Shown piece after piece: positions 11,471 to 18,479 of a DNA stretch of 64,000 nucleotides. Each line of letters opens with the position of its first letter. The first letter of the stretch is position 1. The notes below the pieces were generated by a model that was not told where the DNA came from, made no database searches, and saw nothing but the letters and a program-made list of their open reading frames with translations. A program made the translations under genes and the position numbers. This stretch comes from Candidatus Latescibacterota bacterium (GTDB lineage Bacteria > Latescibacterota > UBA2968 > GCA-2709665). The stretch spans positions 77,087-141,086 of the forward strand of contig CAXXJS010000021.1 of NCBI GenBank assembly GCA_963662665.2. The letters are read 5' to 3'.

Positions 11471-11670
11471 GGGTAAATTGCCCGTGTTGCGATTCCCTTC
11501 TCTCGCGGCGTACGCCTATCGGGCCTTGTGGTGTTGAAGGCCCTTTCGGACATTAGACGCCGCGGAAATCGGATCGGTTTCTGAAAAACCGTATTCGCGC
11601 AATCGTTTCTGTGGTTCGTTCTTGCGCCATCCATCCCGTCCGAAAGATAGATTCTACACAACATCGCAGC

Positions 11671-11708
11671 AAGAAAAGAAAAAACGCGCTGAAATCAGCG
11701 CGTTTTTT
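11671..11708. terminator. Bidirectional intrinsic terminator closing the redoxin operon
   Basis: AAAAAACGCGCTG-AAAT-CAGCGCGTTTTTT, with a longer T-rich tail on the minus strand. Confidence 0.8.
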
Positions 11709-11730
11709 CGTTCGAATACACCGCATTTAT

Positions 11731-12717
11731 TCAGGGTACGCTTTTACCGAAGTTCCTGGCGAATTCCAGAAAGTCCGGAAAGTCGACCAGGCCGCTCCCG
11801 TCCAGGTCGAAGGCGGGATTGTCGGTGTTGAAAGCCTGGGCGAAGGCGATGAAGTCGCTGAACCCGATTTCGCCGTTATTGTCAAAGTCGGCCCGGGGAT
11901 TGACGGAGACAACAATGGCCGTTCCCGAAATTGCGACCGTGACGCTGCCGTTTTCCGGGTCGTCGCTGGAAATGGTAATGGTGCCGGAGAATGGGCCGCC
12001 CTCCGCGGGCGTGAAGGTGATGTCGACATTCGCACTGTCGCCCGGTGCGACCATAAGCTCCGTCAGGCTGAACGTGACGCCCTCGAGGTCGGACGCCAGA
12101 TCTGTGATGCTGAGGTCGTCTCCGCCTGTATTTTTCACGACGAGGGTAACGGTCCTGGTTTCGCCGGCCGGAACGTCATCCCCGAAGTCGAGCGATGGAG
12201 TGGGGAGGCTGATTGCAGGCGGCGCGACGGTCAGCAATTCCCGGATACTCGTCGCCGCGGCGCCGAGACCCGAAGCGCCGCGCCCGATGTGACGGATGAT
12301 CCCTTCCCGGTCCGCGACCAGCAACGTGTGGGTCCCGTGAGAACCCCTGATATTGCCTGCCTGCAGCAGGAGGGGAAACGTGATCGTGGATACTGACTGA
12401 AAACCCCTGAGCTGAGCCGGACTGCCATTGTAGATGTCAAGTCCCAGGACTGCAAAGCCGTCATCATCCTGGAACGCCTTCCAGATCTGCTGTTCTATGG
12501 ACGGACCCGCCGCCCGGCAGGTGGGTCAGTTATGGCCCAGGTAATATAGAGCCAGAACACTGCCCTCGTAATTCGCAGAGCCATAGGTTTTCCCGTCCAG
12601 CCCAGTAAGTGAGAACGTCGGTACCGCGTCACCGACACTCTGTGCATTCGCGGGTCCGAGGGGGTAAAACGCCAAGGCCAGTAGGAATACGACGCATGCA
12701 ACGATTCGACCCATCAC
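11731..12717 (-). CDS. Probable exported selenoprotein (328 aa): signal peptide + AhpC/TSA/TlpA-like redoxin with UxxC + Ig-like domain + paired EF-hand/dockerin-like tail
   Basis: AAGGAGG RBS; ORF 12526-12717 and ORF 11731-12324 are in one frame, separated only by TGA at 12526-12528; hand translation reads LYYLGHN-U-PTCRAAGPSIEQQIWKAFQDDDGFAVLGLDIYNGSPAQLRGFQSVSTITFPLLLQ. Confidence 0.82.
12505..12522 (-). promoter_or_regulatory. Candidate SECIS-like hairpin just 3' of the UGA
   Basis: ACCUGCC-GGGC-GGCGGGU (7 bp, G-starting loop); the loop is somewhat closer to the UGA than in the usual bacterial SECIS model. Confidence 0.4.
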
Positions 12718-12748
12718 AGTCCTCCTTTGAGAAAATGTGTCGTCTGCG

Positions 12749-14332
12749 TCAGAAATAGGTTTTCAGACGCATCTCAAGGCCATTGAACGGCAACACCAGA
12801 TAGCATGTCCCCGATGTACACGCGGCGCCGCCTCGTCTGCGGCCGGCGAATACGAAGGCTTCGTATCGATCGAGAAATGCGACGTTGAGATTGACCGACA
12901 GCCAGGAACGTGTCCCGGTCTCCACCCGGTCCGGTGTGGCGCCGTCGTCCACTTCAAACGGATCGTTGGTACGATCCAGTATGAGGGCGCAGCCCACGCC
13001 CGAGGGATGCTGGAAGGAAAACTGGGTAAAGACGTCCAAGAACCCCGGCTCGGTTCGAGGCTGCCTGGCCGCGCGCCGGACCTGAAAATCCAGGCCCGCG
13101 ACAGATCCGCAGGGCGTCGTGGATTCGATTCCCGCGCCGGCGATTCTGTGCTTCCGAATCCCCTTCAGTTCGTTTTTTCCCCAATCGACGAACAGGTTGG
13201 TGGAAATCGCGTGGTCCCCGCCATCAGACGGAAGGTCGACCTCCACGCTGAAATACCGCTCGTTGAAGGTCGTTGTGAAGCCGGGCGCGAGTTCGTTCTC
13301 ACCCTTGCTTACATTTGCCGTCAGCGTGCCCAGACCGAATATAGAATAGGTGGCTTCCGCCTGATAGCCCTTTTCCGTATCGGCAATCAGGGCATGGGTG
13401 GCCCGGTTGAGCAGGACGGCCGAGTGTTCGCGGACAAGGGATGGTGGATCGTTGAAACTGAAGGCGAATTTCTCGTAATCCTTGTATTCCAGGCTCAAGC
13501 CCAGGTTGGAAATTCCGGCGTTGGCCGAAATATAGAGAGCGCTGCCGTCCACGTGCACGTCTTTCAGCCCTGCGTATTCGGCGTAGACGGTTGCATAAGC
13601 TTCCGGAAGGCCGGATGCTTCGATTGCGGGCGTGACGTCGAATTCCAGAAAACCCGACCATGTTCGGGTGGAGTCAAACCTGGAGGCGTGATGGTTGACG
13701 GCGGTGACACCGGTCTTCACTTGCTTGTGAGGCCGCAGCGAGACCTCGCCTCCGAGAATCCAGTCGTCACGTCGCGGTACATCACGAAGCGGATTACCCA
13801 CCCGCACCGCAGGCGGAATATCACTAAATACGGGTCGCCCGATCAGGGCCTTTGCCTCGGCCCGAGACCCCGCCCAGGTGGCAATGCCACCCTCCAGGTC
13901 CCGGGAAGGCGAATAACGCCGTCGGTATTGCCCGCTCTCCAGAATAACTCCGGGCAGATCGAAGGCCCTGATCGTGATGCCACGACCCAGGATGGCGTAG
14001 TAGTTGCCCGCAACCAGCTCGACGGATCCCTGCGTCCAGCGCGCGTGTTTCTGGGAGATATGCACGATCTGGTATTCAACCTGTGACAGCGGCGAGCCCG
14101 GAGCCGTGCTGCGCCATGCATTGAAGATTTCCGCCCGGAATCCGGCCTGCAGACCGTGCCGTGTGTAATCGAGGTCGAACTGCTCATAGAGTGACGAAAC
14201 CGCCAGCGAGTCCGAGCCCGGTACGCGTCCCCGCTGGATTTCGGTCAGGCTGGATGCGGTCACCTGAGCCACGGCCGGTTTCGAGGTCGGCAGCAGTAGG
14301 AGCATTGTCAGGCTATTGATCAGCGCTCGCAT
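12749..14332 (-). CDS. DUF6029-like outer-membrane beta-barrel protein
   Basis: Signal peptide (..PAVAQ), AGNYYAILGRG, SLEYKDY, NDPPSLVREH, C-terminal GRRRGGAACTSGTCY..PFNGLEMRLKTYF ending in Phe; family recalled from memory. Confidence 0.7.
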   Translation of the reverse strand: MRALINSLTMLLLLPTSKPAVAQVTASSLTEIQRGRVPGSDSLAVSSLYEQFDLDYTRHGLQAGFRAEIFNAWRSTAPGSPLSQVEYQIVHISQKHARWTQGSVELVAGNYYAILGRGITIRAFDLPGVILESGQYRRRYSPSRDLEGGIATWAGSRAEAKALIGRPVFSDIPPAVRVGNPLRDVPRRDDWILGGEVSLRPHKQVKTGVTAVNHHASRFDSTRTWSGFLEFDVTPAIEASGLPEAYATVYAEYAGLKDVHVDGSALYISANAGISNLGLSLEYKDYEKFAFSFNDPPSLVREHSAVLLNRATHALIADTEKGYQAEATYSIFGLGTLTANVSKGENELAPGFTTTFNERYFSVEVDLPSDGGDHAISTNLFVDWGKNELKGIRKHRIAGAGIESTTPCGSVAGLDFQVRRAARQPRTEPGFLDVFTQFSFQHPSGVGCALILDRTNDPFEVDDGATPDRVETGTRSWLSVNLNVAFLDRYEAFVFAGRRRGGAACTSGTCYLVLPFNGLEMRLKTYF

Positions 14333-14852
14333 CGGCCTTCGCCCCTTCGTCGGCGCCAGCATCCGGAAAAAGCGCCTCAACGGCCGTCAGCAACACTTCG
14401 GCGTTTTTCGAATTGTATCCGACCTGCCTCAGCGCAATCTCACCGTCCGGGGTGATCAGAAGCGTCGTCGGCAGGACGTTTACCTGCATTCGCCGCATCA
14501 CCGCGCTGTCGGAGTCGAGGGCGACGGGGAAATTGACCCGTCGCGCCCTGAGAAAGGGTTTCACCCGGTTCTGCCCACGCGGACCGTCCACGTTGACGCC
14601 AAGAACCGTGAGTCCGGATTTGCCGTATTTCTCGTGAATCTTCTGGAGCTTGGGCATTGCCTTGACGCAAGGTTTGCAGTAGGTCGCCCAGAAATCCAGA
14701 AGCACCGGCCCGTTTTTCAGCAGGGTCTTCAGGTTGACCCGTTCGCCCTGAAGGTTCCGGAGGTTGAAGTCTGGGGCTGAGGCGGCGTTCACAGTTGCGA
14801 CGCCCAGGGTAATCGAGGCTGCAAAAGCCAGCGATTGAAATAGCGATTTCAT
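14313..14852 (-). CDS. Exported TlpA/ResA-like thiol-disulfide reductase
   Basis: Signal peptide, APDFNL, LLDFWATYCKPC, cis-Pro VLPTT. Confidence 0.93.
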   Translation of the reverse strand: MKSLFQSLAFAASITLGVATVNAASAPDFNLRNLQGERVNLKTLLKNGPVLLDFWATYCKPCVKAMPKLQKIHEKYGKSGLTVLGVNVDGPRGQNRVKPFLRARRVNFPVALDSDSAVMRRMQVNVLPTTLLITPDGEIALRQVGYNSKNAEVLLTAVEALFPDAGADEGAKADASADQ

Positions 14853-14973
14853 CGTCGCAATCCTTCCCGTTTTCCGCAGTGGTTTGAAGGTCTTGCAATT
14901 TATCACCGGGAGCAGAAAATAGTTGACGTCTATTGCGCCTGCTACGGCGGAGAGGAACTTGCCCAAACGGGGG

Positions 14974-17027: not shown

Positions 17028-18479
17028 TTAATTACGGAAAGCGAAGTCGATGGGTCTGCCCTGGGCGAACTTCGCCTCGACGTTGCTCAAGCCGAAGAGG
17101 GTGGCCGAAAGGTCCAGCAGGGAGAGGGGTTCGGTTACTCGCAGGCCTGCAGGCATACCGGGCCCCACGAGCAGCGCACGACCGCCCGCAGCATCCAGTA
17201 CAGCCAGGGTCGTACGGTTCCGGTACCGGTGGTGTCGCTGCGCGATCTTCCAGAGCTGTTGGATAGCAATGCGGCAATCCGGGCCGTCGGTGAGTTGCAG
17301 AACCATGAGATCGGGCTTTGCTCTGGGCACGCAAGCGATGGCCAGAGAAGCCAGGAAGCCGCTTTTCAGTTCCAGATTCTTGTCGGACGAAACGAGGGTC
17401 CTGACGATAAGACGCGAGAGGACCTTGTTCTTGACGGTTTTGGTGATTTTCAGCTTTTTCGGATTGAGTGTCGGGAAGACGACGTTCTCGATGAACGCTT
17501 GCGATCTGCCTTCCGACCTGGCTTCGTCCAGTACAAGGCGGATCCGCTCCGCTGCGCCTGACATCGACGAAGCCCGCACGCAGAGTGCGCCGTATTTCTT
17601 GTATTTCCTTAGCGTGCTTCGCGCCGGCGGGGCGTTGTCGTCAATATAGAAAGCCAGCGTACGGGTGCGTGTCCTGTCTTTAAGTGCGCGATTGTGATAT
17701 TCGAAGAGTGTCGGATGTGCGAGCTTGTCGCCCGTCAGCGCGTCGTCGCGTCCCGTCAGCAGGGTGGCCAGCCATTGTCTTGACGGATTGGGGGCGGGCG
17801 CGGTCTGCAACAGAGTACCCTGAGAGAGCAGGCTGTCGTTGAGCGTTGAACCGGATGTTCCGTATTGCCCAGGCATGATTGCAATCGCGAGAAGCGCCGG
17901 CGGGAAGTCCACATCTCTATAGACGAACCGGTTGATCGCAGTTTTGATTCTATCCCTCTGTTCGGGCATTAACTGAATATCGGAACTCTGGCGCCGCCTC
18001 CTGGCGGTGTCGCCGCGTTGCCCGATTCCCCCTCGCTGCCCGGGGCCCAGTTGCTCTCCCGTCCCGCGACGTTGCCGGGGACCAGGTCGCCGTCCGAAGA
18101 TGCCCGCGATCGCCTCGCCGAAAGCCGCGCGCAAATCCCCATCCGAAGATTCCCCTGCTTTCTCGAAAAAGAGTTTGAATCGCTCCTGTTCCTGCGGAAA
18201 GAATCCATCCCAGTCTGTCATCGAAGTCAATATATAAGCCCTGATCGGGAGGGGTAGTCGGCTGAACGTCTCCTCGTTACCCTTGACGAGGTCGTAAGCT
18301 CCGGATGGGAGGTCGGAATACAGGTCGTTTCGAATTGGACTGAGATCGACGCCGCCTCCGCCTCCTCGCCTCCCTCCTCCTCTTCTTTGTGCAAGCGTGT
18401 CCTCACAGGTAAGCAAGAGGACAAGAATGGTTGCTGAAAGCCCCACTGCACCGTGAGAAAATCTGAGGAATTCAGGCAT
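17028..18479 (-). CDS. Exported hypothetical protein with RG-rich segments and a degenerate alkaline-phosphatase-superfamily-like C-terminal half
   Basis: Signal-like N-terminus; HPTLFEY, RYRNRTTL, LLVGPG..LSLLDLSATL..AQGRPI. Confidence 0.6.
   Translation of the reverse strand: MPEFLRFSHGAVGLSATILVLLLTCEDTLAQRRGGGRRGGGGGVDLSPIRNDLYSDLPSGAYDLVKGNEETFSRLPLPIRAYILTSMTDWDGFFPQEQERFKLFFEKAGESSDGDLRAAFGEAIAGIFGRRPGPRQRRGTGEQLGPGQRGGIGQRGDTARRRRQSSDIQLMPEQRDRIKTAINRFVYRDVDFPPALLAIAIMPGQYGTSGSTLNDSLLSQGTLLQTAPAPNPSRQWLATLLTGRDDALTGDKLAHPTLFEYHNRALKDRTRTRTLAFYIDDNAPPARSTLRKYKKYGALCVRASSMSGAAERIRLVLDEARSEGRSQAFIENVVFPTLNPKKLKITKTVKNKVLSRLIVRTLVSSDKNLELKSGFLASLAIACVPRAKPDLMVLQLTDGPDCRIAIQQLWKIAQRHHRYRNRTTLAVLDAAGGRALLVGPGMPAGLRVTEPLSLLDLSATLFGLSNVEAKFAQGRPIDFAFRN

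Follow-up and report, generated by a model that had tools for sequence, protein, structure and literature searches.

The stretch of DNA analysed here, the window, comprises 64,000 nucleotides (nt) from a Candidatus Latescibacterota bacterium (assembly GCA_963662665.2, contig CAXXJS010000021.1, positions 77,087 to 141,086). On its minus strand, positions 11731-12717 form a single frame with one internal TGA, and we consider it very probable that this frame is one gene for a predicted exported selenoprotein of 327 or 328 amino acids (aa) (Table 1). The open reading frame (ORF) listing had divided it into a 63-aa ORF and a 197-aa ORF with a TTG start at 12324; between the TGA at 12526-12528 and that TTG lie 67 open codons. 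An earlier note made from the letters alone (the sequence-only reading) had drawn attention to the AAGGAGG ribosome-binding site, the in-frame TGA and the 67-codon open stretch, and all three are present in the sequence. Its proposal of one 328-aa protein holds as far as the single read-through frame is concerned; the gene, however, lies on the minus strand, and the ATG at 12714 appears likelier as the start than the GTG at 12717, because the N-termini of orthologues begin M[GS]RI, which would give 327 aa. Residues are numbered from GTG 12717 throughout, the predicted selenocysteine (Sec) being residue 64 (U64).

Table 1. Features of the selenoprotein locus and of the genes upstream of it, in window coordinates (SECIS, selenocysteine insertion sequence; Ig, immunoglobulin).
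Feature	Positions	Strand	Basis or remark
Selenoprotein gene (predicted)	11731-12717	minus	One frame from GTG 12717 to stop TGA 11731-11733; lone internal TGA
Shine-Dalgarno sequence AAGGAGG	12721-12727	minus	Spacing 3 nt to GTG 12717, 6 nt to ATG 12714; read from sequence
Start codon(s) and predicted signal peptide, residues 1-25 (...PANA / QSVGD)	12643-12717	minus	Hydrophobic orthologue N-termini ending AxA
GTG start	12715-12717	minus
ATG start	12712-12714	minus
TlpA/ResA-like thioredoxin-fold redoxin domain, residues 28-146	12280-12636	minus	Pfam, Foldseek, PDB profile
UGA predicted to be read as Sec, U64, first residue of U-P-T-C	12526-12528	minus	Conserved TGA, Cys in few homologues
TGC, resolving Cys67 of UxxC	12517-12519	minus	Invariant alignment column
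Putative SECIS region, nt +1 to +48	12481-12528	minus	More stable than synonymous recodings; GGT wobble; GGUC loop shared with selD
Hairpin, nt +14 to +30	12499-12515	minus	Possible lower helix nt 9-12/39-42
Apical loop	12504-12509	minus	CGGGU (nt 20-24) or GGUC (nt 22-25) by register
Ig-like beta-sandwich (choice-of-anchor D / HYDIN-VesB / DUF1573 / ASH), residues 164-266	11920-12228	minus	Pfam, NCBIfam NF012200, model
Dockerin-like double EF-hand tail, residues 272-324	11746-11904	minus	EF-hand_1, PDB profile, genome paralogues
True stop codon TGA	11731-11733	minus
Intrinsic terminator	11678-11709	minus	14-bp stem, 4-nt loop, T run
DUF6029-like protein, 543 aa, ends ...LKTYF	12749-14380	minus	Pfam PF19494, 50.1 bits
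TlpA/ResA-like CxxC thiol:disulfide oxidoreductase (WATYCKPC)	14313-14966	minus	First gene of apparent operon

The read-through protein matched all 41 related genomes, and the matches that contain the redoxin domain almost always carry an in-frame TGA. In 57 loci from 41 genomes of one order (L025-L081), 67 redoxin copies could be aligned to residues 25-150, and the U64 column holds TGA in 64 of them and Cys in the other three; two pairs of loci overlap, and once the overlap is removed 57 unique Sec and two unique Cys 60-mers remain. A more distant set (20 loci) contributed 21 copies, 17 with TGA and four with Cys at the same column, in keeping with the expectation that homologues carry one or the other. 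Across the phylum, 99 of 168 Latescibacterota genomes had a match at E<=1e-12 (19/21, 30/31, 2/3, 46/76 and 1/1 genomes in families f1, f2, f3, f4 and f13, respectively), and none was found at this threshold in the 35 genomes of the remaining nine families. This survey gave 150 listed matches and nine further ones. Among the 150 listed, 142 have exactly one in-frame TGA, six have none, one has a TAA and one both a TGA and a TAG. Down to about 30% identity the TGA stays at a single column (142/150), and the exceptions that were checked are Cys.

Around this column the family shares the motif G-[HYW]-x-U-x-x-C-x-x-x-G-P-x-x-E, with G61, U64, C67 and P72 invariant in the alignment, and homologues also conserve, at the protein level, the 67-codon stretch that separates the TGA from the TTG. 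The TGA at 12526-12528 was also unchanged in public-run contigs from three studies (X1, X3 and X8 record 11), of which X1 or X3 may be the window's own source, so that the base-call error considered in the sequence-only reading can be set aside. No RNA run is listed among those that contain the sequence. A conserved TGA that gives way to Cys in a small number of homologues is the classical signature of a Sec/Cys pair, and it excludes a sequencing error as well as a nonsense mutation of recent date. Tandem paralogues of the gene occur in some relatives, with two copies each in L027-L030 and three in L075 (215-3326), where a Cys form lacking the Ig domain stands between two Sec forms; in L040 one Cys form adjoins one Sec form.

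The source genome (4.86 Mb in 66 contigs, 92% complete) encodes the Sec machinery that had been named as a check on the prediction. The genes selA (560 bits), selB (372 bits) and selD (356 bits) and the tRNA-Sec (selC, 73.6 bits) all scored above curated cut-offs. On one strand, selA, selB and tRNA-Sec lie side by side (G000:C16:126253-129770, G000 being the source genome) and apparently form one cluster. The selD gene contains one in-frame TGA, as it does in 40 of 41 relatives, and SelD is itself a selenoprotein (...TCG-U-AAK...; L014 around 1528, G000:C40:300126, plus strand). No internal TGA was found in selA, in selB or in the 543-aa DUF6029-like gene, and the selenoprotein gene ends in TGA. 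TGA is therefore not a general sense codon; it serves as a stop in this genome, and an alternative genetic code was rejected.

Two mutually exclusive hairpins are possible after the UGA. The upstream one pairs nt 7-13 with nt 18-24 around a GGGC loop; it folds no better than shuffled sequences (z -0.48, with 62 of 200 shuffles folding equally well) and is not conserved in other subfamilies. In the downstream one, nt 14-19 pair approximately with nt 25-30, and G23 (12506) and U24 (12505) stay unpaired in both loop registers. In one of these registers the loop is GGUC at nt 22-25, the same loop as in the genome's selD, whose hairpin (UCAGUCC-GGUC-GGACUGA) has a 7-bp stem and carries GGUC at nt 21-24 after the UGA. 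The loop of Escherichia coli fdhF is likewise GGUC. Of 31 selD loci, ten have a minimum-energy loop of GGUC at nt 21 and 13 one of GGU at nt 24, the remaining eight adopting another fold; the selD hairpin of relatives is either of the GGUC type seen in the source genome or GAUCCAGC-GGU-GCUGGAUC.

Codon usage and folding favour the downstream hairpin. The Gly codon +7, which supplies G22, G23 and U24, is GGT in 50 of 54 sequences; at four other conserved Gly columns, codons ending in T account for 2/50, 4/57, 10/57 and 3/56. Each sequence was also compared with peptide-preserving synonymous recodings. Of 72 unique Sec sequences, 69 form a hairpin around nt 23 that is more stable than in the recodings, as do 42 of the 44 peptide groups (mean group z -1.35). 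The corresponding values were 54 of 72 and 29 of 44 (mean -0.59) for the upstream hairpin, and 27 of 72 and 16 of 44 (mean +0.29) for a control apex at nt 31. In family f4, where a different peptide follows the CxxC-type site (LSRAESF, IAEAANV), a hairpin still forms at the same position, for example CUCUCG-CGUGC-CGAGAG. A crude search of the whole genome for TGA codons with a GGTC-loop hairpin behind them returned 64 sites, seven of them in long ORFs, and selD and the selenoprotein gene are recognisable among the seven. Another of the seven, C16:68255, was dropped as non-coding because its translation is Arg/Pro-rich and off-frame-looking.

Several observations weigh against assigning the SECIS to the downstream hairpin. 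On the codon-locked alignment, RNAalifold gave no consensus structure; a one-base offset of the 3' arm from one subfamily to another is the likely reason. The hairpin with its loop at nt 22-25 has 67.3% paired cells and a covariation of 0.179 (11 of 500 shuffles as high), and the upstream rival scores alike, with 71.4% paired and 0.180 (1 of 500). That rival is also the minimum-energy fold of the window sequence (71 nt around the UGA), and in the window sequence it does better against recodings (z -2.59) than the nt-23 hairpin (-1.94). The six Cys forms, too, tend to be structured around nt 23 (median z -1.16, five of six below 0), so part of the signal may not reflect a SECIS, and the loop register differs between subfamilies (GGUC, CGGGU, GUC and the CGUGC type of f4). 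In an Rfam scan of 11600-12800 at E<=10, no SECIS family appeared among the 12 sub-threshold matches, most of which lay on the terminator hairpin. On balance, a SECIS at the nt-23 position is well supported, the pairing given for it is provisional and formal covariation is modest. The GC-rich hairpin that the sequence-only reading had placed 3' of the UGA thus exists, but the relevant one is that which leaves G23 and U24 unpaired and not the minimum-energy GGGC-loop structure; similarly, of the proposed test by folding and covariation across relatives, the recoding comparison favoured the nt-23 hairpin across the family while covariation left the two hairpins level.

In E. coli fdhF, according to PMC8659212, the SECIS is a stem-loop at a distance of 11 nt from the UGA, and its apical loop contains G23 and U24. 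The structure described here resembles it in that the stem-loop begins about 11-13 nt after the UGA and the same two bases are unpaired at the apex. It differs in its short, GC-rich stem, whose register varies between subfamilies, in the competing upstream hairpin, and in that no clear equivalent of the bulged U17 is established. Because G23 and U24 are placed as in fdhF, the gene might be expressed directly in E. coli.

The predicted protein has three domains after its signal peptide. In the first, Pfam AhpC-TSA (PF00578) matches residues 28-119 with 38.8 bits (cut-off 26) and Redoxin (PF08534) residues 28-146 with 27.1 bits (cut-off 26.6); the redoxin-type motifs AVLGLD, TFPLL and LLVADREGIIR noted earlier are in frame, and P115 of TFPLL, a candidate for the cis-proline facing the active site, is at least 90% conserved. 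In the second, the HYDIN/VesB/DUF1573/ASH Ig-like families of Pfam match residues 168-266 and NCBIfam choice-of-anchor D (NF012200) residues 164-255 (49 bits, cut-off 45). In the third, EF-hand_1 matches residues 303-321 (26.5 bits, cut-off 25.4). An AlphaFold model built on a 38-sequence alignment (predicted local distance difference test, pLDDT, 89.7; predicted template modelling score, pTM, 0.64) has U64 directly before a helix at 65-82, beta-sandwich strands at 175-268, short helices at 286-295 and 313-322, and a helix of low pLDDT (3-16) at the signal peptide. With Foldseek, the first domain resembles a putative protein disulfide isomerase of Bacteroides thetaiotaomicron (2ls5, TMt 0.79) and ResA of Bacillus subtilis (1su9, TMt 0.84), and the second the PapD-like domains of HYDIN and CEP192 (HYDIN 2e6j). 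A PDB profile search also matched ResA/TlpA-like proteins.

In this fold, U64 and C67 form a CxxC-type pair at the N-terminus of helix alpha-1, with both columns invariant. The sequence-only reading had set YLGHN-U-PTC against FWATY-C-KPC of the upstream TlpA-like gene and placed U at the nucleophilic Cys position; both segments are present, and the placement agrees with the ordinary TlpA-like proteins among distant homologues outside the phylum, where the first Cys of WCxxC stands at the position of U. The other homologues there are peroxiredoxins of the BCP type. We conclude that the protein has a TlpA/ResA-like thiol:disulfide oxidoreductase fold with a predicted Sec at the attacking position. 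The AhpC/TSA-like class named earlier fits at the level of the Pfam families; the fold, however, is not that of a peroxiredoxin proper. A peroxiredoxin mechanism was rejected, as the motif GHN-U-PTC lacks the TxxC/U of the peroxidatic motif P-x-x-x-T-x-x-C/U and BCP-type TPGC/TPGU sequences align Thr at the U64 column. Distant BCP-type peroxiredoxins with a TGA in T-x-G-U were seen in records of metagenome-assembled genomes of Acidobacteriota and Actinomycetota (L118, L123, L147). T-x-G-U is a known type of peroxiredoxin selenoprotein (TxxU), unrelated to the UxxC redoxin family described here.

UxxC selenoproteins of the peroxiredoxin-like (Prx-like) and thioredoxin-like (Trx-like) classes have been predicted for two decades. 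They are tabulated in PMC13188914 (Table 1) and PMC2398784 (Table 2), and the latter, the Global Ocean Sampling (GOS) study, already notes Prx-like selenoproteins fused to extra domains. The present family shares with these classes its Pfam families, the UxxC motif and the Sec at the attacking position, and it is predicted by the same logic of a Sec/Cys pair plus a SECIS; it is unlike them in joining a signal peptide, a redoxin domain and Ig-like domains to a dockerin-like tail or a type IX secretion system (T9SS) sorting domain. The GOS table gives 2,740 Cys homologues against 225 Sec forms for its class Prx-like 1 (PMC2398784), whereas here Sec far outnumbers Cys, with one TGA in 142 of the 150 matches listed. 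The family may overlap with these broad classes, the comparison having been made with their tabulated descriptions.

Closer to the fold, the redoxin domain superposes on ResA/TlpA/DsbE-type proteins (1su9, 1st9, 2ls5, 3gl3, 3or5) with TMt 0.79-0.84 and a root-mean-square deviation (rmsd) of about 2 A over about 137-145 columns, and like them it has its active site at a helix N-terminus and is predicted to be exported. It differs from them in sequence (16-27% identity), in having G-[HYW]-x-U-x-x-C in place of W-C-x-x-C, with Sec for Cys, and in its additional C-terminal domains; NCBIfam ResA (NF002854) scored 28.1 bits, below its cut-off of 170. No NCBIfam selenoprotein model reached its cut-off. 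The model NF041054 ('ResA-like WAxxUGC motif-containing protein') also describes a ResA-like exported redoxin selenoprotein, but with UGC in place of UxxC; it does not match the window selenoprotein and matches only its Cys-containing TlpA neighbour (51.8 bits, cut-off 300). The C-terminal region of Mycobacterium tuberculosis DipZ (2hyx, 5cyy; Foldseek ranks 2 and 5-7) likewise places a thioredoxin-like domain before a beta-sandwich in a single exported polypeptide; the superposition is poor (rmsd about 19 A), the domain order alone being alike, and DipZ has neither Sec nor a dockerin-like tail. OS_HP2/DUF1573 (NF041425; PF07610, UGC/UxC) belongs to the same DUF1573/HYDIN-like superfamily as the Ig-like domain, but carries its Sec in its own family motif, whereas the Ig-like domain here has none and scores 25.1 bits against a cut-off of 100.

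Two genes stand upstream on the same strand. The first, at 14313-14966, matches Pfam AhpC-TSA with 88 bits and NCBIfam ResA with 103.7 bits, the latter below the cut-off of 170. Between it and the selenoprotein gene lies the DUF6029-like gene, whose product is 52-57% identical across family f1; its Pfam match spans residues 69-140 only, and its C-terminal residue is aromatic. This gene is directly upstream of the selenoprotein gene in the source genome and in all 14 other genomes of the genus, as well as in five of five other f1 genomes with a DUF6029 hit and in genome G037, and it is adjacent in none of the 16 genomes of genus g6. In genome G038, two DUF6029 copies (C1:1133843-1136307 and 3201272-3203736) are each followed by a match to query residues 97-253 only; these partial matches lack the TGA and the active-site region and may be truncated or diverged relatives. 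Elsewhere in the window, tRNA-Ile(GAT) and tRNA-Ala(TGC) lie 20 nt apart at 22581-22752 on the plus strand. Two such tRNAs commonly make up the spacer of a ribosomal RNA operon, and the window therefore probably contains one.

All full-length homologues have a hydrophobic N-terminus, and a signal peptide of the signal peptidase I type is predicted; a lipoprotein signal was rejected, since Cys8 is too near the N-terminus and the hydrophobic h-region comes after it. The architecture of the family is a redoxin domain, then none to several Ig-like repeats (0-3 or more), then a dockerin-like tail, with lengths of 186-795 aa among 57 complete ORFs. In family f4, two relatives instead end in a type A sorting domain of the T9SS: TIGR04183 scored 40.4 bits in L159 and 30.8 bits in L160, above its cut-off of 23, and an NCBIfam scan did not find it in the window protein. 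The T9SS type A sorting domain marks cargo that crosses the outer membrane. The f4 locus L164 (1463-3379, plus strand) encodes a 639-aa fusion in which a signal peptide and a UxxC redoxin domain precede a beta-lactamase-fold/D-aminopeptidase-like domain, whose 128 bits fall short of the equivalog cut-off; the fusion's C-terminus resembles the T9SS tails of L159 and L160, although the tail family is not among the best 25 NCBIfam rows. Two different envelope or surface modules are thus attached to one catalytic domain, which argues that the family works outside the cytoplasmic membrane.

The tail of the window protein appears dockerin-like by resemblance. The family profile matches cellulosomal dockerins in the PDB (2y3n_B at E 4e-7; 4wi0), tblastn finds 80 high-scoring segment pairs of the tail elsewhere in the source genome, some of them overlapping, and Pfam Dockerin_1 occurs at 24 places there, several at the coordinates of those segments. 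The source genome also encodes four cohesin domains above cut-off. T9SS tails are present in three of the ORFs concerned, two of them on C17 and the third on C20, and also with a fifth, sub-threshold cohesin match on C37 (G000:C17:11179-11832 and 17435-18085; C20:38906-39544; C37:54075-54713). The C20 ORF (L155 1117-1944, minus strand) encodes a small 275-aa protein that consists of a signal peptide, a cohesin domain and a T9SS tail. These findings suggest a cohesin-dockerin system hung on T9SS cargo in the source genome. A PorU-like fragment (222 bits, below cut-off) and a DsbD_TM protein were found there as well.

Taken together, these data are consistent with the following mechanism. SelB with Sec-tRNA(Sec) would be recruited to the UGA at 12526-12528 by the hairpin about 13 nt downstream, with G23 and U24 unpaired, and Sec would be inserted. 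The product would have a cleavable signal peptide, a TlpA/ResA-like fold bearing U64-P-T-C67, one Ig-like spacer and a dockerin-like double EF-hand tail, and U64-P-T-C67 at the N-terminus of helix alpha-1 would occupy the place of the attacking Cys of CxxC. In the cell envelope, the enzyme may be a thiol:disulfide (selenenylsulfide) oxidoreductase tethered by its tail, possibly to the genome's cohesin proteins bearing T9SS sorting domains. An envelope relay could reduce it, with a DsbD/CcdA-type transporter and the TlpA-like CxxC protein encoded nearby as candidates.

Where the enzyme works is the point on which alternative explanations carry most weight. It may well be, though we stop short of calling it probable, that the gene encodes a true selenoprotein acting as a purely periplasmic TlpA-like reductase, in a periplasmic or outer-membrane-assembly task with its DUF6029 neighbour, the tail being a calcium-binding or periplasmic interaction module and no surface anchor. 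A signal peptide alone predicts the periplasm, the nearest solved folds are periplasmic or extracytoplasmic proteins of the ResA/TlpA/DsbE type, the DUF6029 gene keeps its place upstream in the genomes counted above, and the tail lies below dockerin cut-offs. On the other hand, relatives of the same redoxin domain bear the T9SS type A sorting domain, the tail recurs through the genome, in several cases at Dockerin_1 coordinates, and cohesin-bearing proteins are encoded in the same genome.

More tentatively still, part of the Latescibacterota may possess a family of selenoenzymes on the cell surface, or released from it, that reach it by two interchangeable routes. We think it rather doubtful, but conceivable, that these routes are a T9SS sorting domain on the redoxin protein itself in f4 and, in f1 and f2, a dockerin-like tail docked on T9SS-tailed cohesins, so that the redoxin would travel with T9SS cargo or be tethered to it. 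Under this proposal Sec might, somewhat speculatively, be kept in more than 90% of copies because an oxidising exterior makes a Cys thiol less reactive or inactivates it, and the enzymes could, at a similarly low level of confidence, be extracellular redox catalysts, for instance in the reduction, at the surface, of metals, of peroxides or of polymers that are oxidised or rich in disulfides. Some points count against a surface location, which is a possibility for the window protein. Dockerin_GC (NF041540) scored 24.8 bits, below its cut-off of 29, and Dockerin_1 (PF00404) had no match in the window protein at E<=0.1, and a dockerin-tagged protein would need a way across the outer membrane. The complex predicted between the cohesin domain of the 275-aa protein at L155 and the dockerin-like tail scored 0.22 (mark 0.32), which speaks neither for binding nor against it. 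Of the Ig-like and EF-hand/dockerin-like domains listed in the sequence-only reading, then, the Ig-like and EF-hand parts are above cut-off and the dockerin part is below it; its description of a secreted enzyme is borne out as far as the signal peptide and the sorting or anchoring modules go.

That the UGA is read through as something other than Sec, by near-cognate Trp or Cys insertion or as a lineage-specific sense codon, is very unlikely, and nothing specific speaks for it: the gene terminates in TGA, long genes of the genome are free of internal TGA codons, the genome encodes the full Sec machinery and a selD hairpin that matches, and the column is that of the catalytic Cys, its exceptions being Cys. 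Least credible of all is a nonsense pseudogene, or a pair of genes comprising a 63-aa signal-peptide ORF and a 197-aa 'choice-of-anchor D' protein, to which the available TTG at 12324 and the C-terminal piece in gene calls and searched protein records lend some appearance, but which would break the thioredoxin fold after strand beta-1 and before the active-site helix and is at odds with the single-column TGA across the phylum, its Cys exceptions and the protein-level conservation of the codons up to the TTG. We therefore return to a real and unannotated selenoprotein gene with a predicted Sec at U64, of which we are highly confident.

Among public protein records (5.8 billion clusters, searched at lengths of 181-578 aa), the protein is represented only by a C-terminal piece of 195-241 aa named 'choice-of-anchor D domain-containing protein', and all records of its relatives are truncated 'choice-of-anchor D' or 'DUF1573' proteins; no full-length read-through record was found at these lengths. 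The split by gene callers that the sequence-only reading had supposed is accordingly visible in the records. Judged by titles and the openings of abstracts, none of the papers found deals with Latescibacterota selenoproteins or this family, although supplements of selenoproteome papers may list members. The domain combination, which the sequence-only reading did not recognise as characterised, is new in its architecture and distribution, but UxxC chemistry has long been known, and the gene is best described as a new architectural variant of known UxxC redoxin selenoproteins. What is new is a redoxin subfamily without a curated model, with near-exclusive use of Sec, spread through part of the Latescibacterota and equipped with surface or secretion modules.

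In summary, the catalytic half of this protein and its dependence on selenium are invisible in the protein collection searched, although the gene occurs in 99 of the 168 Latescibacterota genomes sampled. Metabolic reconstructions of this uncultured phylum would consequently miss an envelope redox system and understate the demand for selenium. The family is unusual in being almost entirely Sec-containing and in carrying a dockerin-like tail, a T9SS sorting domain and Ig spacers, and, if the predicted location is true, its members would be selenoenzymes working outside the bacterial cytoplasmic membrane.

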